DNA of 32,000 nt from Candidatus Saccharimonadota bacterium (GCF_002214165.1 NZ_CP019964.1:300001-332000); one strand, 5' to 3'. Shown: positions 3,001-22,695, numbered from the stretch's first letter. Notes: generated by a model from the letters alone, not told the origin. Translations and numbers: made by a program.

Positions 3001-4811
3001 CCAACTACGATGTATACCTAACTGAGCTCTCTTATCCATCAAGTGGGGCTTCTTCCTTAAAACCGGGAGATGGCTGGTACTTCCCTGGAACTTCAATTAC
3101 ATTGTCAGAGACGAACAATACGGGTTATAAGTTTAAGGATTGGACAGGCAATGAAGGAAGCGCTTCTTCATCCTTTACAATGACAGTTCCGACAGAACCA
3201 TTTACCGAACAGGCGAACTACGATGTATACCTTACAGAGCTCTCCTATCCATCAAGTGCACCGTCATCAATTTCACCAGGAACAGGATGGTACTTCCCAG
3301 GATCATCAATAACTGTATCAACATCTGCAAATACCGGTTACCAATTTGAAAATTGGGAAGGTTACGAGAATAGTACTTCTTCATCCTTTACAATGACAGT
3401 TCCGACAGAACCATTTACAGAGCAGGCGAACTTCAAGGTTGGTCTTTATATATCAATAGACCCAAGCAACGGTGGATCTTCCAATCCAACAGCAGGTAAA
3501 TGGGCCTATTACTATCCAAATACAACCACAATAATAAAACTTTCTGCAAATGTAACATCAGATGCAGAATGGTCCTTTACAGGATTTAGTTGTAGTTATA
3601 ACGGAAATGATAGATGCCCAAGCAATGTAAACCCATCCGTCGCATTCATAGGCGATTCCCCATTGTATGTTACTGCATACTTTGAATCCGTAGACCTTTA
3701 TTATATAGCAGGGTTTGATACATCTGCTGGCTATCACACTAACCATGTTTACTATGCACCTATAAATTACAGCAATGGACAGATGGGTGAATGGTATGAA
3801 ACTGAAAGCATATTCGGTCCTAATGGACCTAACAACAAAGGTGTCAATAGCGAGTCGTCTGTATCAAATCAAGGATGTGCTGTAGAAAGTCCAAATAATA
3901 CCTACTCATTCCCTAGTGTGTGGTGTGCAGGTGGAAACAATGCGACAGTTGGAGAGTATTACCAAGTGGAATCCGCATCATTAACGCCTTCAGGAATACA
4001 AGATAATACATGGTATGTGCAGTCACCTCCAGGAAATGATACGCTCAATCATGCGACTACCGAGGCATCCGCAGTAATATCTGGAGACTACATGTATTAC
4101 ATAGGAGGAGAAAAATTAGATGGATGCAGTTTCTTAGGAGTTGCACAAGACTGTGTTTATAATCATGTAGATGAAGCTGAACTGTTCCCCGGAGAGTCAA
4201 GCAGCTGGTCTACAGTTGGCAATTATCCAATAAAGGATTATATCATATATGAAGCAGCTGTATCCTATGATGGATACATATACATAGTAGGGGGGGCAAC
4301 ATCTGGTGAAAGTAGCGAAACTAATGCTGTTTATTCAGCAAAGGTAAACTCTGATGGTACAATAGGTAGCTTAACTGCACAAAACGACTATCCATACTCA
4401 GTGGCTCAGTTGAGCTGTACTGCAAGCGCTGGTTATATATACTGCGTAGGAGGTTACGTAGAAAATGGTTGCACGGTTGATGGCATATCTGCATCATGTA
4501 CCTACAACCAGGTATGGTCTGCACCTATAAGTAATGGGTATGTAGGAACATGGACAAGGCAGGCAAGCTATCCAAGAGGAGCATATGGAGAGAGCTGTGC
4601 TTCATACTACGATGGTATTAACAGTAATAGTGTCATATACTGCGTAGGGGGCGAAAATTCATCTATACCTGGATATGAAGGGGTCCATTATGCCTATGCG
4701 GATGATGGCACAATAAGTGGCTGGTACGATGGAACAACCTATCCATACAATGTAACTCGTGGGGTTGCGGTGCTAGCTGTTACGGGAGGGCCTAATGTTC
4801 TAGGAAGCTAA
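78..4811 (+). CDS. Giant secreted surface protein / putative adhesin. It has an archaeal class III (type IV prepilin-like) signal peptide, a Cys-rich head, an Ig-like module, about 11 InlB-B-repeat-like units and a C-terminal six-blade Kelch-like beta-propeller.
   Basis: Longest ORF in the window. The TTG start at 78 is preceded by AGGTG (68-72), and the next in-frame Met lies after the signal peptide. The N-terminus KKNAQSALEYLVTYGWAILIIAVVISLLYFF is a basic stretch, then Q-S-x-x-E-Y-L, then about 20 hydrophobic residues (prepilin pattern). DELTANVIFLGYPLAGSTVNFT...GNIKVNATFG reads like a bacterial Ig-like module. Eight conserved units (seven of 71 aa, one of 79 aa) follow YDVYLTELSYPS..GSGWY.PGSSITLSE.NNTGY.F.NWTGYE..SSSFTMTVPT.PFTEQAN, plus about 3 degenerate units upstream and downstream. 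The last ~370 aa contain six blades of the form (I/Y)Y(I/C)(V/A)GG ... W ... YP. The protein is very rich in N-x-S/T sequons. Confidence 0.85.
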   Translation: MGNKRSIKTKSSKTKHSHKKNAQSALEYLVTYGWAILIIAVVISLLYFFVAVPSNVVPNSCSFVTGANCEDMELGSNSISHTSTISLLITNSKDYAIKDPSITVEYNKVNVTHSCYPSYVLPGGSIICVANMSTYLPTNTYTYGNLYLNSEDCGSSNSSSCANAPKQIYAGKFNTHVALVVKPSLTISLNASSGHNGRWPADNYPDELTANVIFLGYPLAGSTVNFTEVPDEETLFPTYASTSSQGIAHSFVYGTTIGNIKVNATFGNYTSHYVYINFSPVTQYHLIFNVPYGKVTITTPINSTTFTKNATGTTICNSELNYSTPSQVTLVSNEAYENFTYAESNGVKYYNSTGSIPIYCNSTTVSFNYTTYYKLNENVNPSYSSGVVSSSPLSSNGYYKKDSSLQLSAKSSNPKEWVFANWTCAASTSIGSTCYSGNSQSPTIIMSNPVNETANFDPMLSLRVIPGGDGTITASSPSGASTSSSTFTSYPEPYGSKITLGESPANSTFRFYKYVGLGTGNYTGNSTSPTITFDNPINETAEYDVYLNELASPSSADASLSPGSGWYFPNSTITLSEVNNTGYRFAGWTGYENNASSSFTMTVPNTDFTEQANYDVYLTELSSPSAAAKTLLPGTNWYIPGSTINLSETNNTGYKFMNWTGQFSSTRNPMSITVPSTPFTETAEYAVALKLSVYEHGDGKATVSPGGSTNSSSIFWETPGASLYFTETNTTGYKFAKWVGYDSGNSSNFTMTAPNSQFNETAEYDVYLTELSYPSNAASSLLPGSGWYLPNSSITLSEKNNTGYKFVNWTGYEKSTSSSFTMTVPNTDFTEQANYDVYLSEPSYPSGGAKTLSSGSGWYFPGTSITLSETNNTGYRFIDWTGYEGSNSSSFGMTVPTEPFTEQANYDVYLTELSYPSNAAYSLSPGSGWYLPNSSITLSEKNNTGYRFVNWEGYENSTSSSFTMTVPTVPFTEQANYDVYLTELSYPSSGASSLKPGDGWYFPGTSITLSETNNTGYKFKDWTGNEGSASSSFTMTVPTEPFTEQANYDVYLTELSYPSSAPSSISPGTGWYFPGSSITVSTSANTGYQFENWEGYENSTSSSFTMTVPTEPFTEQANFKVGLYISIDPSNGGSSNPTAGKWAYYYPNTTTIIKLSANVTSDAEWSFTGFSCSYNGNDRCPSNVNPSVAFIGDSPLYVTAYFESVDLYYIAGFDTSAGYHTNHVYYAPINYSNGQMGEWYETESIFGPNGPNNKGVNSESSVSNQGCAVESPNNTYSFPSVWCAGGNNATVGEYYQVESASLTPSGIQDNTWYVQSPPGNDTLNHATTEASAVISGDYMYYIGGEKLDGCSFLGVAQDCVYNHVDEAELFPGESSSWSTVGNYPIKDYIIYEAAVSYDGYIYIVGGATSGESSETNAVYSAKVNSDGTIGSLTAQNDYPYSVAQLSCTASAGYIYCVGGYVENGCTVDGISASCTYNQVWSAPISNGYVGTWTRQASYPRGAYGESCASYYDGINSNSVIYCVGGENSSIPGYEGVHYAYADDGTISGWYDGTTYPYNVTRGVAVLAVTGGPNVLGS
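1704..3431 (+). repeat. In-frame tandem array of 8 coding repeat units: seven of 213 bp (71 codons) and one of 237 bp, all inside the adhesin gene
   Basis: Each unit starts at the TAC of the YDVY/YAVA motif, at 1704, 1917, 2130, 2367, 2580, 2793, 3006 and 3219. The array ends at 3431. A 47-nt stretch (2646-2692) is identical to 3072-3118, exactly 426 nt (2 units) away. Confidence 0.9.
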
Positions 4812-4836: not shown

Positions 4837-5760
4837 ATGCCTTCAGTAACAAGCGACAAATACATTCAGTTTGATGGGATTAAATTCTATCTGCCCCAGG
4901 TTTCAACTAAGTCATCACCCAAGATATCAGGATATGCTTTATCCCAAATGATCTACGATTTTGACAGGAAGTATGAAACTTCAGGTTACCTTCTTGGGAA
5001 GTACGATGCAAGCGCTGGAGCTCCACAATTTTACCGATACCTCCCTATGAAAGGGCTCAAAAGGCTGAGAGACAGTGTCGAAGTAAAAAATGGCAATAAA
5101 GAATTGAGGCAGTTAAAAAGATTAAAGAAGAAAGGCTATACATCCATAATAAGAGTGCATGTCCATCCCGATCAGGATTATACGAAGTTTGCTGATAATG
5201 AACCTGGATATACTGATTCAAGTGCATTTGTAGGATTTGACAGTTACGCCAAAGCCATTGGATTCCAAGAAGTGTACAGCGGAATACAATTTGGAGGAAG
5301 CAGGCTAAAGTCATCAAAGGGACTTAACCTGTACCATTTGACAGGTATAGGATTGGAGAAAACTTCATATGAAGTTGTCAATTTTGATCAAAGCAAAATA
5401 TACAAAGACAAAAAACTTAGGAAGTTTGCACGCAGCACTCAAGGGGTAAAGCATGCATTTAGCGAGTTCAGATATGTGACTACAACAGATGTTAACAAGT
5501 ACCATTTTGAACCAGGCTACTATAAAAATGTCCTTTCATTGAAAGTCCTAAAGAAAGAAGTCAATGAAATGCTATTAAATAAGGGAATAAAAAACATAAA
5601 ACTGAAAGGTAAAAGGTCTGATCTTTACCTTAAGGAAGTAGTGAAGCCATACATGAAATTAAGGAGGGGCTATAATCCCGATTTACTATATATAATAGGC
5701 GAGCAGTTAAAGAGCTCTATGGCCAATTACAAATCAGGTAACCTATCAATAAATATATAA
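4837..5760 (+). CDS. Hypothetical protein with an N-terminal JAB/MPN-like (JAMM metalloprotease-like) motif set and a Lys/Arg-rich C-terminal half
   Basis: The ATG lies 25 nt after the adhesin stop and is preceded by AGAGGT. YETSGYLLGK resembles the E-x-x-G-x-L-x-G element. IIRVHVHPDQDYTKFADNEPGYTDS resembles H-x-H...P-S-x-x-D, with Ser replaced by Gly and about 6 extra residues. Residues ~180-307 are strongly basic. The family assignment is tentative. Confidence 0.4.
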   Translation: MPSVTSDKYIQFDGIKFYLPQVSTKSSPKISGYALSQMIYDFDRKYETSGYLLGKYDASAGAPQFYRYLPMKGLKRLRDSVEVKNGNKELRQLKRLKKKGYTSIIRVHVHPDQDYTKFADNEPGYTDSSAFVGFDSYAKAIGFQEVYSGIQFGGSRLKSSKGLNLYHLTGIGLEKTSYEVVNFDQSKIYKDKKLRKFARSTQGVKHAFSEFRYVTTTDVNKYHFEPGYYKNVLSLKVLKKEVNEMLLNKGIKNIKLKGKRSDLYLKEVVKPYMKLRRGYNPDLLYIIGEQLKSSMANYKSGNLSINI

Positions 5761-5810
5761 AATAACCTAATAACCCAATTTTAAATTGTCTTTATACGGA
5801 TTATTAATAT

Positions 5811-6023
5811 TCATTTTCTAAGTTTAGCTGTTTTTTTAGAAAACTTGTTAGGAGTATTTTTTTCAAGCTCTTTTTCAAGTTCAGGGTCTTTTTCTAATGC
5901 CTCAAGTGAAGACCTAAAAAATTTGTTGAATTTCAATGCATATTCCTTGTCTTTCATAAACTTTATTCCAGTCTCCTCTTCAATTTTCTTCTCTTTTTTT
6001 ACCTCCTTGAAGAAATTTTTCAT
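5811..6023 (-). CDS. Small Lys/Glu-rich hypothetical protein (70 aa)
   Basis: ATG-initiated ORF with a plausible charged helical composition. The overlapping plus-strand ORF (5845-6054) is a Ser/Phe low-complexity mirror. No recognisable family. Confidence 0.4.
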   Translation of the reverse strand: MKNFFKEVKKEKKIEEETGIKFMKDKEYALKFNKFFRSSLEALEKDPELEKELEKNTPNKFSKKTAKLRK

Positions 6024-6139
6024 TCCACCATCATTAACAATACTGCATAAATAATATTTATTAGTATTGTGGTTATAAACTTCAATTATATAGGAAATAG
6101 AAAAATACGCTTAAGCTTTAAATAAAAAAGAAATAAAAG

Positions 6140-6463
6140 TTACTTTAAGTAATCTGATAGTATTGGAACCTTTATATCCACGCCTTTGTAAGCTTCATAA
6201 CCTATATACATTCCGTATAACCATATTAACAAAACTACAATTCCGGACAAAGGAAGGAATACAAAATCCAATATAAAGCTTAATACTATAGACACTATGC
6301 CAAGCACTATAGCTTGTATTGCATGAAATCTTGCTCTTTTATCTTTCTGTCCTACTGTGAAATATACTATTACACCAGTCAGCCATTCAAGCAGATAAGT
6401 TATCAAAAAGGTTAAATTGTCAGTACTATCTCCAGAAACACTCTTTTTAGATTTTGCAGACAT
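6140..6463 (-). CDS. Small integral membrane protein, DUF4870-like
   Basis: Three hydrophobic segments. VYFTVGQKDKRARFHAIQAIVLG matches the ...k.d...RFHA.QA... signature I associate with the DUF4870 family. A TATA-like TTTAAAAA lies ~30 nt upstream on the minus strand. Confidence 0.6.
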   Translation of the reverse strand: MSAKSKKSVSGDSTDNLTFLITYLLEWLTGVIVYFTVGQKDKRARFHAIQAIVLGIVSIVLSFILDFVFLPLSGIVVLLIWLYGMYIGYEAYKGVDIKVPILSDYLK

Positions 6464-6501
6464 GTTATCAATTATATTCCAATGTAAAGATTTTTAAATA
6501 C

Positions 6502-6515
6502 GACCTATATAGGTC
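6502..6515. promoter_or_regulatory. Perfect 14-bp palindrome GACCTATATAGGTC just upstream of the TATA-like box of the 6140-6463 gene
   Basis: The sequence is its own reverse complement. It lies 39-52 nt upstream of the minus-strand ATG at 6463. Function unknown. Confidence 0.25.
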
Positions 6516-6615
6516 AATAAATAGGTAATACGATTTATAAAAATTCAGATAACAAAGTCGAAGCATAATTCCATTAAGTTGATTTCAAACGCTTTGAATA
6601 TGCAAGCTATAAAAA

Positions 6616-6690
6616 TGCTCCCGCCGGGATTTGGACCCGGGTTCTAGGCTCGAAGGGCCTATGTCCTTGACCGGGCTAGACGATAGGAGC
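6616..6690 (-). tRNA. tRNA-Glu (anticodon UUC), 75 nt, no encoded CCA, with unusual positions
   Basis: Minus-strand sequence: GCUCCUA UC GUCU AGCCCGGUCAA GGAC A UAGGC CCUUCGA GCCUA GAAC CCGGG UCCAAAU CCCGG CGGGAGC A. The cloverleaf was folded by hand. A TTTTT run follows. Oddities: C at position 33, an A7-C66 mismatch, and C55. Confidence 0.75.
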
Positions 6691-6719
6691 ACAAAATTTA
6701 AAATTCCTTGTTTATTCAG

Positions 6720-17697: not shown

Positions 17698-18945
17698 ATG
17701 AATGGTTATACAAACAACATGGATTCCACAAGAGCCTATAAATTCAGGATCTATCCAGATACTAAAAGGCAGAATGAGATAGATGAAAGGCTAATCCTTG
17801 CACAGCAGTTCTACAACAAGATTCTGGAGAAGTCCATTGAATCCTATAAGAATGGAAAGGCAAAAGCCTCAATGGCACAGTTCAACAGGTTCGTCAAAGA
17901 AATAATCCAAGATGACAAGAAATACCTGAAACTATACTCGCAGACGAGATGCGAGATTGAATATAGGCTTCTCAAGGCATACCAGAACTTCTTCAGGAGA
18001 ATCAAGGAAGAAAACAGAAAGGCAGGATTCCCGAGATTCAAGTCAAGGAACAGGTACAAGTCAATAACATATCCTCAGTACAATGGCTCTTTCTCAATAA
18101 AGAGGGGCAGGCTGAGAGTCTCAAGGATAGGAACAATGAGGATAGAATTGCATAGGAAGATTGAAGGCACAATCAAGACGCTTGCAATAAAGAGGGAGGG
18201 AAGAAATTATTATGCTGTTCTTACCACAATAAACGAAATCAAAACCCCACAAGTGGAGGACACAAATCCAATCGGAATAGACATGGGATTGAATTCATTC
18301 GTTGCAATGTCAGATGGAACAAAAATAGAAAAGCCGAAATTCATGCAACAGGAAAGAAAGAGGATTGCGCATTGGCAGAGAATAGTCGCACGGAGAAACA
18401 AAGGTTCAAAGAGAAGGGAGAAGGCAAAAACACATCTCCAAAAAACATACGAATACTCCACAAACCAGTCGGACGACTACTTGCACAAACTTTCAGACAG
18501 GCTTGTCGATTCAGGATATACTTCATTCGCAGTAGAGGATTTGCACATTCAAAACATGGTAAAGAATCATAGATTGGCAGGTTCGATACAAAACGCTTCA
18601 TGGAACAGGTTCATCCAAATGCTTTCATACAAGGCTGAAAGTGCTGGTATGAAAGTAATAAAAGTAGATTCAAGGGACACGACGCAGGAATGCAGTAACT
18701 GCCACCATATAAAGGAAGGCAGTGAAAGGTTGACTTTAGGAGACAGGTCATACCGCTGCAACGTCTGCGGACTGGAAATTGACAGAGATATAAATGCATC
18801 AATAAACATATTGAACAGAGCAACTACCCTCGGACAGAGGGAAAGTCACGCTCAGGGAGAGAGTGTAAGGCCTCAAAGGGAGGCAGTTCTCGCTGAACTG
18901 AGAACCGATAAAACACATCCTTTGCGGGATGCAGTGATTGCATGA
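17698..18945 (+). CDS. tnpB: TnpB (IS605 OrfB-type RNA-guided endonuclease), apparently intact
   Basis: AAGGTG lies 7 nt upstream of the ATG. RuvC-I is GIDMGLNSF, RuvC-II is FAVEDLHIQNM, the zinc finger is CSNCHH...CNVCG, and RuvC-III is DRDINASINI. The N-terminal YKFRIYPD block is typical of OrfB/TnpB. Confidence 0.92.
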   Translation: MNGYTNNMDSTRAYKFRIYPDTKRQNEIDERLILAQQFYNKILEKSIESYKNGKAKASMAQFNRFVKEIIQDDKKYLKLYSQTRCEIEYRLLKAYQNFFRRIKEENRKAGFPRFKSRNRYKSITYPQYNGSFSIKRGRLRVSRIGTMRIELHRKIEGTIKTLAIKREGRNYYAVLTTINEIKTPQVEDTNPIGIDMGLNSFVAMSDGTKIEKPKFMQQERKRIAHWQRIVARRNKGSKRREKAKTHLQKTYEYSTNQSDDYLHKLSDRLVDSGYTSFAVEDLHIQNMVKNHRLAGSIQNASWNRFIQMLSYKAESAGMKVIKVDSRDTTQECSNCHHIKEGSERLTLGDRSYRCNVCGLEIDRDINASINILNRATTLGQRESHAQGESVRPQREAVLAELRTDKTHPLRDAVIA

Positions 18946-20255: not shown

Positions 20256-20327
20256 GGGCTCGTAGTCCAGTGGTAAGACGTTACCTTCACAAGGTAAAGA
20301 TCCGGAGTCCGATCCTCCGCGGGCCCA
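20256..20327 (+). tRNA. tRNA-Val (anticodon CAC), 72 nt, no encoded CCA
   Basis: GGGCUCG UA GUCC AGUGGUA AGAC G UUACC UUCACAA GGUAA AGAUC CGGAG UCCGAUC CUCCG CGGGCCC A. The fold is by hand. There is a C13-A22 mismatch and C at position 55. Confidence 0.8.
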
Positions 20328-20339
20328 TTTTCAGTTTTC
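20328..20339 (+). terminator. Oligo-T tract (TTTTCAGTTTTC) directly after tRNA-Val
   Basis: Archaeal transcription commonly terminates at T-runs. The position fits the end of the scpAB-tRNA unit. Confidence 0.4.
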
Positions 20340-20608
20340 GAGGAAGCCTGTTCTGATTTTAATATTTTGAATTACTTATAAGCAACAGCAGGAATATGGA
20401 CAGATAAAGATAAGAGTATATAAAATGAATGACCAAGCCAAATGAGTAAACTACTCCAGCTTTACAGGCATTAGTTTAACAGTAATTTCATCATTACAAA
20501 AAACTACATAAGGTATATTGAAAATACTTAGTTGCAAGATTTTAGGTATTCTTCCGTTCTGAAGTAACTTTAGGCCATGCTACTCTAATGATGGGGATAC
20601 TTGAATAG

Positions 20609-21067
20609 TTAGAAGAAGTTTTCCATTATATACTTGAGATTCTGTTCAAATATTCTATCGTTTCCTGCACGAGAATACTGATCCGCTCTTTTATCCAAAT
20701 GTGCCTTTGTTATGTGGGCGTATTTTATGCAGTCCTTTATATCTTCCATATCAGAATCATTTAATCTTGAAATCTTTGAGCATATAATATCTATAGGGCC
20801 TAATATCCTAACATTGATTTTTTTAAAGTTGGTTTTGTATTCTATTGTTGATTTTACATAGTCTTCCGGTAAAATTTCGCTAAATATCATATTAGAAGAC
20901 CAAGAATCAATTTTTACTCCCGGTTTAATTCTATCATAAACCCGATTAAATTCATTAAAATCATCTTCCAGAGGTATGTTAAAATCTATATCTTTTGTAG
21001 AAGCCTTAATACCCAACAAGGTCATTGCAGTGCCGCCAACAGCTATAAGTAAAATCTCTCTACCCAA
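20609..21067 (-). CDS. Small pol-beta-fold nucleotidyltransferase (DUF6036-/MNT-/AbiEii-like core)
   Basis: TTG start; an in-frame stop 12 codons upstream excludes a longer form. LLIAVGGTAMTLLGIKASTKDIDFNI fits the hGG-x(9-13)-D-h-D nucleotidyltransferase motif. The C-terminal CSKISRLNDSDMEDIKDC resembles the helical tail of DUF6036-type proteins. The gene is very AT-rich. Confidence 0.6.
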   Translation of the reverse strand: MGREILLIAVGGTAMTLLGIKASTKDIDFNIPLEDDFNEFNRVYDRIKPGVKIDSWSSNMIFSEILPEDYVKSTIEYKTNFKKINVRILGPIDIICSKISRLNDSDMEDIKDCIKYAHITKAHLDKRADQYSRAGNDRIFEQNLKYIMENFF

Positions 21068-21069
21068 CT

Positions 21070-21088
21070 CTTGATCAAAGAGATCAAG
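21070..21088. promoter_or_regulatory. Perfect 7-bp inverted repeat CTTGATC-aaaga-GATCAAG between the two islet genes
   Basis: Seen directly. It lies 3-21 nt upstream of the minus-strand TTG start at 21067. It could act as an RNA hairpin or as an operator. Confidence 0.3.
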
Positions 21089-21124
21089 GAAACCTAAAAG
21101 TCATTTTTTTGAAACTCCTGCCAT

Positions 21125-22150
21125 CTAATCATACAACTCTATATATCTTTTAATCAGCTTGCTATCATAAATATATGGCTTATCTGGAATGAGGCCAATA
21201 TAATATTCGATTTCGTTATTATATGGTTCATTAATCAAATTAACTAAAGACAGCAAAATTCCCTTCAATTTACCCAAACTGTCGTACCTTTTATAAATAT
21301 AATACAGGTAAGCCAAATTTATTTTGCCGATATCTTTATACAAGAGTAAAATAGCCCCATAATTTATTCTAGTCTCTTTATTGATGCTCATTGAGAATAT
21401 TATTGGTTCAATAGCTATTTTTTTATTAGGTTTGATATCCTCATTTAGTTGATAACCAAACCTATTATAGTTATATGCCAATTCATCCCTTGTTAAATCT
21501 TGTAGAAACTTATTAAATTTTTTATATTTAGTATCTATTTTATAAAGCTTTATTAACTCCCAAAAACCATTGCTATTATATAGGATATTCTTATCCAATA
21601 GCAAATCCTTTATTAAGTCCAATTCATCAGATTTCATTGTCTTTATGAATTCATCTATTGTAAATATAATTGGGTCTATTTTAATATTGTAATCAGATTC
21701 CACTTTGAGCAATGATTTTATAAGGTTGCTATTTTCATCGTGATTCCTGGTAAGAATCAATAATTCCAGTCTATTAATTTTCTGGTATTTCTCTAGGCCT
21801 AAAGAACAAATAGAGAGTATATCGAATTCTTGAGTCAAACTAAGTATACTGTCAAGCAGCTCTTTAGAGGTACTTATTTTTTGATTTTTGTAATTTTCCA
21901 CCTCCGATATATAGTAGTTAGAAAGTGGATTTTCTATATTAAGTTTTATTAACCTACTATTTCCTTGCCGTTCTATATTTATGATACCTTTTCTTTCAAG
22001 CTTTTTTGCAGTACTGTATATATTTGAATAATATGCAGGCCCATATTTTCTATTTATATCTTTTGACATTTCCAATATGCTGCCGCCATTACCAAAATTA
22101 TCCGATAAATAACTCATTATTTTGATCTCTTCCTTGTTCATTTTAGTCAC
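21125..22150 (-). CDS. Winged-helix DNA-binding protein with a possibly degenerate nucleotidyltransferase-like middle region and a helical C-terminal domain
   Basis: The N-terminal ~70 aa (ILEMSKDINRKYGPAYYSNIYSTAKKLERKGIINIERQGNSRLIKLN) reads as a MarR/ArsR-like wHTH. ILSICSLGLEKYQKINRLELLILT resembles an NTase G-S...D-x-D strand pair with the acidic residues lost. The start is GTG 22150 or ATG 22141. The gene is very AT-rich. Confidence 0.5.
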   Translation of the reverse strand: MTKMNKEEIKIMSYLSDNFGNGGSILEMSKDINRKYGPAYYSNIYSTAKKLERKGIINIERQGNSRLIKLNIENPLSNYYISEVENYKNQKISTSKELLDSILSLTQEFDILSICSLGLEKYQKINRLELLILTRNHDENSNLIKSLLKVESDYNIKIDPIIFTIDEFIKTMKSDELDLIKDLLLDKNILYNSNGFWELIKLYKIDTKYKKFNKFLQDLTRDELAYNYNRFGYQLNEDIKPNKKIAIEPIIFSMSINKETRINYGAILLLYKDIGKINLAYLYYIYKRYDSLGKLKGILLSLVNLINEPYNNEIEYYIGLIPDKPYIYDSKLIKRYIELYD

Positions 22151-22160
22151 ATATACTATT

Positions 22161-22178
22161 TACTATACTATTATAGTA
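22161..22178. promoter_or_regulatory. Inverted repeat TACTATA-ctat-TATAGTA in the promoter region of the wHTH gene. Candidate autoregulatory operator.
   Basis: Seen directly, 11-37 nt upstream of the candidate starts and embedded in TACTAT direct repeats (22154-22170). Confidence 0.3.
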
Positions 22179-22278
22179 ATTCTAATATTTAGAGGTTTTC
22201 ATTAATTAATATAATTGATGTTAGCAAATTTTCAGAAGCCCAAACGGTGGGAATATTTACAATGAAAAAGAAATCATT

Positions 22279-22695
22279 TTACTTGTCCTTGTAGGTTACC
22301 ATGAAGCGTGCAAAAGCCACTGCTGCGATAACTACTGCCAATGCTATCATGCTGCCGACCACCAATCCAGAGTCAAGGATTATTATTATCGTTTCTCTAA
22401 GCAAAAAGGATAAAGTTGCATCTATGATGTAAATCGTGCTCCTTCCATTTCCATCGAAGAAATCCACCATGCTAAGGTACAGCTCTATGAATACGACCAG
22501 CAGCAATGCATTTTCAAGGGTCACATCAACCACTTGGAACATGCTTACCCCAATTGACTGTACTATCTGCTCAGCTGCATTTATCAGCACGGCAACCAGA
22601 CCTATGAGAAGGAGTACTTCAACTATAAGCGATATGATATTCACTACCATATGCTTTGGCACTATATGACTCTTTGCAACCGCTTTTTTTGCCAT
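22279..22695 (-). CDS. PsiE-like (phosphate-starvation-inducible E family) membrane protein
   Basis: Four hydrophobic segments. LLLVVFIELYLSMVDFF...IYIIDATLSFLLRETII parallels the E. coli PsiE core (YFLYFEFIALIVKYF...YIGITAIVRLIIV) as I recall it. Confidence 0.5.
   Translation of the reverse strand: MAKKAVAKSHIVPKHMVVNIISLIVEVLLLIGLVAVLINAAEQIVQSIGVSMFQVVDVTLENALLLVVFIELYLSMVDFFDGNGRSTIYIIDATLSFLLRETIIIILDSGLVVGSMIALAVVIAAVAFARFMVTYKDK

Follow-up and report, generated by a model that had tools for sequence, protein, structure and literature searches.

A putative autorepressed toxin-antitoxin-like cassette with an interrupted DUF6036 nucleotidyltransferase gene in an AT-rich islet beside tRNA-Val

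An AT-rich islet with a two-gene cassette

What kind of unit is encoded by the small AT-rich islet that directly follows a tRNA-Val gene at positions 20328-22278 of the window NZ_CP019964.1:300001-332000? The window is the complete stretch of 32,000 nt that was analysed, and coordinates refer to it unless another locus is named. The islet carries two genes, A and B, which are both encoded on the minus strand. We lean towards the view that they represent an autorepressed toxin-antitoxin (TA)-like cassette of the AbiE/MenAT type, in which the nucleotidyltransferase B would be the toxin while the winged-helix protein A would serve as repressor and antitoxin, and that the toxin side has been disabled in this genome. 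The two genes would form a bicistronic unit that is complete in itself, has a size of about 1.6 kb and extends from 22199 to 20609 on the minus strand. It is composed of the following features.

21125..22141, minus strand: gene A, putative autorepressor and antitoxin, intact, 338 aa plus stop codon
20609..21124, minus strand: gene B, DUF6036 minimal nucleotidyltransferase and putative toxin, 171 codons from ATG 21124
21101..21103, minus strand: TGA at codon 8 of gene B
22142..22199, minus strand: conserved promoter block with a TATA-like TAAATATTAG (plus strand 22182-22191), the operator and a short leader
22160..22179, no strand assigned: palindromic putative operator TTACTATA-N4-TATAGTAA between the TATA box and the A start codon

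A first-pass annotation, made from the sequence alone, had described an AT-rich islet between tRNA-Val and a PsiE-like gene which holds only two co-oriented genes, and both statements were confirmed. With a GC content of 0.292, the 1951 bp of positions 20328-22278 are the lowest span of this length in the whole window (mean 0.406, standard deviation 0.042), the next-lowest 1951-bp span outside the islet having a GC content of 0.328. When a sliding window is used, the GC content is 0.26-0.32 over positions 20400-22400 and about 0.40 on both sides. The bias is also synonymous, as the GC content at third codon positions is low in A (0.30) and B (0.29), compared to a range of 0.36-0.62 for 20 other genes of the window. 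The islet has only two sizeable open reading frames (ORFs), both on the minus strand: an ORF of 341 aa with a GTG start (22150..21125) and an ORF of 152 aa with a TTG start (21067..20609).

Gene A codes for a winged-helix protein with a degenerate nucleotidyltransferase domain

As the homologues of A begin at the position of ATG 22141 and not at GTG 22150, the protein is considered to have 338 aa. A total of 53 homologues were found, each with a length of about 338 aa and with 47-80% sequence identity, and all 35 residues that are invariant in the family are kept in the window copy. The AlphaFold model of A (predicted local distance difference test, pLDDT, 90.7; predicted template modelling score, pTM, 0.88) was divided into the following domains.

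21875..22141, minus strand: winged helix, residues 4-92 (Foldseek probability 1.0)
21545..21874, minus strand: middle domain with the nucleotidyltransferase fold of MNT antitoxins, about residues 93-202 (Foldseek, PADLOC and alignment)
21128..21544, minus strand: all-helical C-terminal domain with eight helices, about residues 203-341 (secondary structure of the model)

The first-pass annotation had recognized a winged helix, a degenerate nucleotidyltransferase region and a helical C-terminus, all of which are seen in the model; its length of 341 aa had to be corrected. The top Foldseek matches of the winged helix are RosR, MarR-family proteins, ArsR/SmtB-family proteins and SSV1 F-93, and the residues Y40, Y41, N43 and Y45 of the recognition helix are invariant. 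For the MNT-like region, a second model was made without the N-terminus and this truncated model was submitted to Foldseek. The matches are MNT antitoxins of HEPN-MNT systems (7aer_A, 5yep_A, 7ae9, 7bxo, 6m6v) and HI0073, with target-normalised template modelling scores of 0.45-0.65 and probabilities of 0.92-1.0. In addition, A is weakly matched (E 2.7e-5, residues 49-184) by PDC-M05A, the nucleotidyltransferase model of a PADLOC candidate system that consists of a nucleotidyltransferase and a HEPN protein. The site that corresponds to the active site is degenerate: the glycine of the GS motif is replaced by cysteine, the first catalytic aspartate by an invariant arginine (R127) and the second one by glutamate (E129), and D159 is invariant.

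For the C-terminal domain there is no convincing match in the PDB, either by fold or by sequence, and no Pfam match. Its invariant residues are N227, Y228, R230, G232, E248, R261, K272, K287 and R288. Scans of the Pfam and NCBIfam libraries did not assign A to any family, the NCBIfam scan being without any hits, and a PDB profile search with the family profiles of A and B returned spurious matches only.

A sensitive search yielded 346 representative relatives of A. Full-length relatives share the degenerate site down to 25-29% identity. Relatives of about 200 aa, which are matched by Pfam NTP_transf_2, consist of the winged helix and an MNT domain with an intact GS...DxD site. Because the alignment with these active-site relatives shows the loss of the glycine and the presence of R127 and E129, A is, as judged from this alignment, a pseudo-enzyme which is derived from a winged helix-turn-helix (wHTH)-MNT protein. 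The family of about 200 aa with winged helix and intact MNT domain (L041 1392-2588, where L and P numbers denote the loci and contigs compared; P0296, P0312, P0320) is the one from which A appears to descend. The wHTH-MNT gene of L041 is followed by a gene for a protein of 199 aa which has no Pfam match and does not resemble the C-terminal domain of A; these genes may represent a further uncharacterised pair. As the 199-aa gene is unrelated to the C-terminal domain of A, an origin of A by plain fusion of an L041-type pair could be ruled out.

Gene B is a DUF6036 nucleotidyltransferase gene with a nonsense codon

The homologues of B have 171 aa, and the ORF of 152 aa, from TTG 21067 to 20609, is what is left of such a gene in the window. 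An ATG at 21124 is found directly 3′ of the A stop codon, as in the relatives, and is in the same frame as the TTG ORF. Codon 8 of this frame is TGA, while all 15 other loci that were read have a sense codon at this position (E, D, A, N, S, G, R, K or I). Stop-codon recoding was considered and rejected, since this genome uses TGA for regular termination, as in 9 of 24 ORFs of the window. As a nonsense codon precedes it, the TTG start is an artefact of ORF calling, and the annotated 152-aa gene should be read as a 171-codon gene that is interrupted by a nonsense codon. The loss comprises 19 residues, including L9, which is invariant in the family, and L10, D17 and L20, which are nearly so.

The TTG start of the first-pass annotation thus had to be abandoned, and the gene is not intact in the window. 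The GG...DxD motif, by which it had recognized B as a nucleotidyltransferase, is real and is invariant in the homologues; a lack of conservation of these residues would have spoken against the first-pass reading. In an alignment of 17 sequences, down to 33% identity, residues G30, T32, K40, S42, T43, D45, D47, D73, D112, K117, R120, D125 and D128 are invariant, and all of them are found in the window copy. The pattern of active members of the pol-beta superfamily (G30/G31, D45, D47, D73) is likewise invariant and present in the window. B is matched by Pfam DUF6036 (PF19502) with 50.2-50.4 bits at a cut-off of 23.6, and this model matches 17 of 17 homologues (best E 6e-17). A profile search retrieved more than 2600 relatives at 90% clustering, most of which have 168-175 aa. 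One homologue of B carries the Joint Genome Institute (JGI) label "nucleotidyltransferase component of viral defense system", which is the COG name for AbiEii-type proteins.

Because the downstream catalytic residues have all been kept, either the lesion is recent or a truncated product may be made. The B protein of the window is probably inactive, or at best is made as an N-terminally truncated product at a low level.

A conserved promoter with a putative operator precedes gene A

In a DNA alignment of six loci, the region of about 55 bp upstream of A is nearly invariant, with a conservation that exceeds that of the coding sequence, and the sequences are unrelated further out. The layout of TATA box, palindrome, about 20 nt and ATG is shared by 19 of 21 loci, with the distant L033 among them, and the flanks of these loci are otherwise unrelated. 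While the arms of the palindrome are conserved, its 4-nt spacer is variable. Each of 20 loci that were fetched has the exact pattern once, at 35-40 bp 5′ of A, and the window has a single copy of it even if 3 mismatches are allowed. The putative operator is located at the expected archaeal transcript start, and such an arrangement would fit repression by a dimeric winged-helix protein. The cassette also shares the general organisation of TA operons, being bicistronic, with the regulator gene in first position and a promoter of its own that contains an inverted repeat.

Among the full-length relatives of A, that of L009 is the most divergent one, and at the place of the operator this locus has another perfect palindrome, of 16 bp (ACCATAATATTATGGT, 3027-3042). 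This would be compatible with operator and recognition helix having changed together. In L017 (about 4255-4300) the operator half-site TATAGTAAAT occurs twice in the promoter, which suggests a local duplication.

A and B are linked, and damage accumulates in B

The homologues of A and B are all from Micrarchaeota or from other DPANN metagenome bins, and a pattern-limited scan of species-representative genomes detected the cassette in 17 of them. In every Micrarchaeota locus that was read, A is directly followed by B, and the A stop codon abuts or overlaps the B start codon. In the archaeon ADurb.Bin336, which represents another DPANN lineage, a full-length A relative of 313 aa (hhalign probability 99.5%) precedes a DUF6036 gene, and an A relative with about 29% identity (P0180) is likewise located 5′ of a DUF6036 gene. 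In the Nanoarchaeota locus L011, the DUF6036 gene is preceded by a partner of 219 aa. The hhalign match of this partner is restricted to the C-terminal domain of A (E 2.9e-6, probability 88%), with which it has the motif E..YN.sRFGY in common. Because the L011 partner has that domain alone, comparison of these sequences suggests that it is this helical domain which forms the core of the partnership with B. A DNA-binding regulator combined with a minimal nucleotidyltransferase, which had been proposed from the window sequence as TA-like logic, is thus seen as a linked pair of a winged-helix protein and a DUF6036 protein.

A bacterial DUF6036 gene in a Geobacter sp. metagenome-assembled genome (L013 1283-5252) is found in the reverse order, being followed by a gene of 223 aa that has no assigned family. 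This pair adjoins hipBA, a TumE-like gene and a helix-turn-helix (HTH) gene, a neighbourhood which looks like a TA cluster. The Geobacter DUF6036 partner has no significant similarity to A.

In several cases, B is found to be damaged. While it is interrupted by a nonsense codon in the window, B of L008 suffers from a frameshift and in addition has catalytic D73 replaced by Q. On contig P0001, which codes for the closest homologue of A, a product of 73 aa is found at the position of B and is followed by an IS200/605 element with a Y1 transposase and TnpB. B is possibly damaged in L030, which has no start codon, and in L017, which has an early stop in a sequence of low coverage. A has double the length of B and is damaged only in the L032 remnant. 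If damage were random by length, 3-5 hits would all be found in B with a probability of 0.04-0.004, corresponding to (1/3)^3 to (1/3)^5. A "truncated" B in L007 can be traced to a stretch of N within the scaffold and was discarded as an artefact. Because B breaks while A is intact, the decay pattern fits B as the harmful partner and argues against the polarity of HEPN-MNT systems.

That polarity deserves attention, since in HEPN-MNT systems the nucleotidyltransferase acts as the antitoxin. The titles of PDB entries 7aer and 7ae9 also describe it in this role. Applied to the cassette, B would be an antitoxin that nucleotidylates a toxic helical domain of A, e.g. a divergent RNase which is fused to its own regulator, as in type VII systems. 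This would agree with the middle domain of A, which has its closest fold relatives among the MNT antitoxins of HEPN-MNT pairs and is matched by PDC-M05A, and with the invariant Arg, Lys and Tyr residues of the helical domain. However, loss of an antitoxin would be lethal, yet it is B that decays while A is intact. Also, the MNT-like domain resides in A and not in B, and is catalytically dead. As had been noted from the sequence of the large protein, an R-x(4-6)-H motif is not conserved in the C-terminal domain of A, nor is any His, and Pfam, PADLOC and Foldseek provided no HEPN match for this domain or for B. We consider the reversed polarity to be highly improbable.

The cassette occurs in variable context and is frequently close to tRNA genes

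The conserved unit has sharp edges, one of which is located about 55 bp 5′ of A and the other at the B stop codon. In every locus the GC content of the cassette is below that of at least one flank, and with the exception of L028 it is below that of both flanks, even in a genome with 53-57% GC. When the proteins of ten window neighbours were compared by tblastn to all fetched loci, synteny of the flanks was found to be absent. The sole flank matches are an RNase H gene and an AMMECR1-like gene, which occur 5 kb away in L008 and in a different arrangement. It follows that the pair is not fixed at one locus with native composition, which would have spoken against an accessory element: its contexts differ and its GC content deviates.

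A tRNA gene is located within 700 bp of the cassette in 7 of 16 loci, while about 7% would be expected. The binomial p is 5e-5, or 0.004 if just five of the loci are independent, based on a density of 45 tRNAs per 952 kb (PMC5498576). The nearby genes code for tRNA-Val (CAC and TAC), tRNA-Arg (two cases), tRNA-Glu (CTC and TTC) and tRNA-Gly (GCC and TCC). We propose that the cassette travels between genomes as a unit, with its low GC content being kept, and that it tends to land beside tRNA genes. Whole-cassette loss also occurs, since Micrarchaeota TL1-5.bin118 (L032 3651-3846) holds a remnant in which the exact operator and about 20 first codons of A are followed by unrelated sequence and B is lacking.

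In Micrarchaeota MAS4.bin50 (JAJZOD010000003.1; L016 5643-5860), two tRNA-Arg genes are found just upstream of the cassette, each of which is followed by a fragment of 35-45 nt. The fragments resemble the T-arm and the 3′ acceptor strand of a tRNA-Val similar to that of the window (84% identity over 37 nt), and may have been left behind by earlier integrations or else reflect an unusual structure of the tRNA genes. On an 853-kb Micrarchaeota chromosome, the cassette has genes for a MoxR-type ATPase and for two Fic-domain proteins within 4 kb (L001 8512-11156).

The islet had been put forward as a candidate accessory or defence system. It can be retained as an accessory element because of its variable context and low GC content, while a link to defence is unsupported: PADLOC has nothing for B and a weak MNT-type match for A, and no copies were found on viral contigs. 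B has no relative in IMG/VR. Five IMG/VR matches for A were rejected, as they go back to a chance IIYNSEGFW stretch in a protein of 558 aa which, by eye only, is phage portal-like. Among the PHROGs there is nothing for A, and B is assigned to one family without assigned function.

Borders and flanks of the islet

Outside the cassette, the islet and its border contain two further features.

20256..20327, plus strand: tRNA-Val(CAC) (ARAGORN; Rfam tRNA, 59.6 bits), which bounds the islet, is convergent with the cassette and lies outside of it
20328..20608, no strand assigned: non-coding AT-rich spacer from the B stop codon to the tRNA gene (281 bp, GC 0.317)

No match to the spacer was found in the other loci by blastn, and in an alignment of the downstream regions homology stops at the B stop codon. 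On the opposite side, the islet is followed by the PsiE-like gene (22279-22695; Pfam, 24.1 bits) and then by an RNase H-like gene. An Rfam scan of the islet returned the tRNA alone, besides a match below threshold on the minus strand of the spacer (20409-20498), where the model is that of a C/D-box snoRNA family of fungi (23 bits, E 0.15). This region has an AUGAUGA motif that resembles a C box, but a clear D box was not seen; the match is probably due to chance.

Among the characteristics of tRNA-integrated islands, deviant composition and adjacency to a tRNA gene were found, while an integrase and a direct repeat at the far border were not. The ORF survey revealed no integrase in the islet, in agreement with the first-pass annotation. 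That annotation had also pointed to the 8-mer ATTTTCAG (20327-20334 and 22228-22235) as an att-like duplication. It does occur at both borders, but the window has 4 copies compared to 2.6 expected ones, and 4 copies are reached in 29 of 100 shuffles, so that it was rejected as a chance occurrence. A partial copy of tRNA-Val was not detected in the window when tRNA-Val with its 3′ flank was used as blastn query.

With such borders, it has to be asked if the islet is only what remains of a decaying element that had integrated at tRNA-Val in the past, the pair being passenger DNA without present function that is on its way to being lost. Low GC content, tRNA adjacency, an AT-rich spacer of 281 bp that is not conserved and a nonsense codon in B could all be explained in this way, as could an IS200/605-type tnpB at a distance of 1.3 kb and the fragments resembling tRNA 3′ halves beside the L016 cassette. 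However, the window lacks the integrase, the att repeat and the partial tRNA copy, and the conserved unit has sharp edges. A is intact with its 35 family-invariant residues, promoter and operator match the family consensus exactly, and all catalytic residues of B are kept, hence the lesion would be recent. We therefore regard debris as a decidedly improbable explanation.

The tnpB-like gene is an ORF of 415 aa of the TnpB/IS200-605 type (17698-18945), located 1.3 kb past tRNA-Val and beyond scpA/scpB, which was identified by eye from its translation. The window contains a second AT-rich stretch (5650-6550, GC 0.26-0.31), which adjoins a tRNA-Glu gene (6615-6691, minus strand). It has just two small ORFs, both on the minus strand, which code for a Lys/Glu-rich protein of 70 aa and for a protein of 107 aa that is membrane-like by eye. 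This stretch may be another small insertion at the side of a tRNA gene.

A proposed mode of action

How would the cassette work? The winged helix of A is predicted to bind as a dimer to TTACTATA-N4-TATAGTAA, between the TATA box and the start codon, and to repress the operon. The B protein, with its complete length of 171 aa, would be the growth-inhibiting effector and, by analogy to MenT, may add nucleotides to an RNA target such as the 3′ ends of tRNAs. A would restrain B through its dead MNT-like domain and mainly through the helical domain at its C-terminus, either by direct binding or by inducing B to modify itself.

Several observations weigh against this proposal. B belongs to no curated toxin family and reaches at most 18.1 bits with the AbiEii model, compared to a cut-off of 22.5. 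It is not matched by PADLOC, and a PDB sequence search detected no relative of B. A has no AbiEi match in Pfam and, with 338 aa, is large for an antitoxin, and the invariant polar residues of its C-terminal domain could point to an enzymatic or RNA-binding role. Some of the damage in B is from metagenome assemblies based on low coverage or long reads, where assembly error is possible. In the window itself, B has every catalytic residue, and reinitiation at TTG 21067 is a candidate route to a truncated product.

The main competing explanation is a two-protein nucleotidyltransferase or signalling unit which is not toxic. B would be the catalytic subunit and A a substrate-binding or ligand-sensing subunit, as in HI0073/HI0074, and transcription would be linked to the product or substrate via the winged helix. 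The unit would have a role in regulation or RNA maintenance rather than in addiction or defence. Strict co-conservation of A and B over deep divergence is in accordance with such a unit, as is the lack of a match of B to a defence family. The invariant residues of the C-terminal domain of A are charged or polar (N227, R230, E248, R261, K272, K287, R288), the invariant triad R127/E129/D159 could still bind a nucleotide, and the Foldseek list includes HI0073, which is the nucleotide-binding half of a two-protein nucleotidyltransferase. However, B is repeatedly broken while A is intact, which is hard to square with B being an obligate catalytic subunit. The distribution over the 17 species-representative genomes of the pattern-limited scan looks patchy, composition is always foreign and context always different, and L032 retains a remnant of the cassette. 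Also, the layout of the promoter, with putatively tight autoregulation, is typical of TA modules. On balance, we consider a non-toxic unit to be unlikely.

The proposed autorepressed TA-like cassette leads to a concrete hypothesis: a MenT/AbiEii-like toxin which is controlled by a pseudo-nucleotidyltransferase antitoxin and by an exactly defined operator of 20 bp. If true, a dead enzyme domain has been recruited to control an active relative, making A a pseudo-enzyme antitoxin. According to reports, few defence or TA systems have been recognised in DPANN archaea. It is a speculative extension, which we hold to be improbable, that the cassette represents a widespread and as yet undescribed class of nucleotidyltransferase toxin modules in DPANN archaea. 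In this class, the antitoxin would consist of a pseudo-enzyme, which is a dead MNT domain with an Arg in the metal site, and of a new helical domain, and the latter would be the universal partner of DUF6036 enzymes. The minimal mobile unit would insert beside tRNA genes without an integrase of its own, and possibly would act on tRNA as an abortive-infection system or as a symbiosis-related growth switch in host-dependent cells. With its conserved promoter and operator and its insertion at the side of tRNA genes, the cassette is also a useful marker of gene flow among Micrarchaeota.

Comparison with known systems

The HEPN-MNT systems (MntA/HepT, type VII; PDC-M05) resemble the cassette in the MNT antitoxin fold of the middle domain of A and in its weak PDC-M05A match. 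Also, close relatives by sequence of the two N-terminal domains of A are found in the wHTH-MNT proteins of 200 aa with an intact GS...DxD site. In contrast to these systems, the MNT domain of A lacks the glycine of the GS motif and has its first Asp replaced by Arg, and the active nucleotidyltransferase is a separate DUF6036 protein.

The abiE system is bicistronic with the regulator gene in first position. AbiEi has an N-terminal winged helix and a C-terminal antitoxicity domain, and autorepresses via inverted repeats (PMC3985639). The cassette is similar in its regulator-first bicistronic order, in the winged helix of the first protein and in its occurrence on mobile DNA. However, A has no AbiEi (COG5340) Pfam family at E<=1, and it has a dead MNT domain in addition, while its helical domain is unrelated. 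While the AbiE operator consists of two repeats of 23 bp, that of the cassette is a single 8-N4-8 palindrome.

For AbiEii, four motifs have been described, which are hG[GS] (I), DhD (II), Lys...Arg (III) and +DxxD (IV) (PMC3985639). When compared by sequence pattern, B has candidate counterparts in VGG, D45-x-D47 (DID), K117-x-x-R120 and D125-M-E-D128, all of which are invariant. The spacing is different from that of AbiEii, where K173...R180 and D192 are found. B is also smaller by about 100 residues, and its Pfam family is DUF6036 and not AbiEii/DUF1814 (PF08843). The best match to PF08843 is below the cut-off (E 0.0027), and 6 of 17 members have colinear matches that are likewise below threshold. 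The first-pass annotation had stressed that AbiEii toxins are much larger, which is true; nevertheless, the residue pattern of B resembles that of the MenT/AbiEii catalytic core, and MenT1 is a smaller member of this group. Since neither protein could be placed in these families by the searches, the cassette is not to be filed as AbiEii, AbiEi or HEPN-MNT, and no curated family includes it. The earlier conclusion that the pair fits neither AbiE nor MNT-HEPN is thereby upheld.

The MenT toxins of Mycobacterium tuberculosis (MenT1, MenT3, MenT4) have a bi-lobed fold in which the catalytic Thr/Ser, Asp, Lys and Asp are co-localised, and add nucleotides to the acceptor stems of tRNAs. The catalytic core of MenT1 is formed by T39, D41, D43, K137 and D152 (PMC10435456). 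B has T43, D45, D47, K117 and D125/D128 in the same order and with similar spacing, as judged from the residue pattern. MenT antitoxins are diverse and can induce phosphorylation of the Ser/Thr that adjoins the DxD motif (PMC11375011), a position at which B has the invariant S42 and T43. In contrast, there is no sequence match of B to any MenT structure, MenA antitoxins are unrelated to A, and the hosts are DPANN archaea and not actinobacteria.

When compared to DUF6036 (PF19502) and DUF2204 (PF09970), B is a clear member of DUF6036, while A, its obligatory partner, belongs to no family. No paper in the literature mentions DUF6036, and DUF2204 is mentioned in passing in one. For DUF6036, a family with thousands of members and no assigned function, the cassette supplies a putative role that is open to experimental testing.

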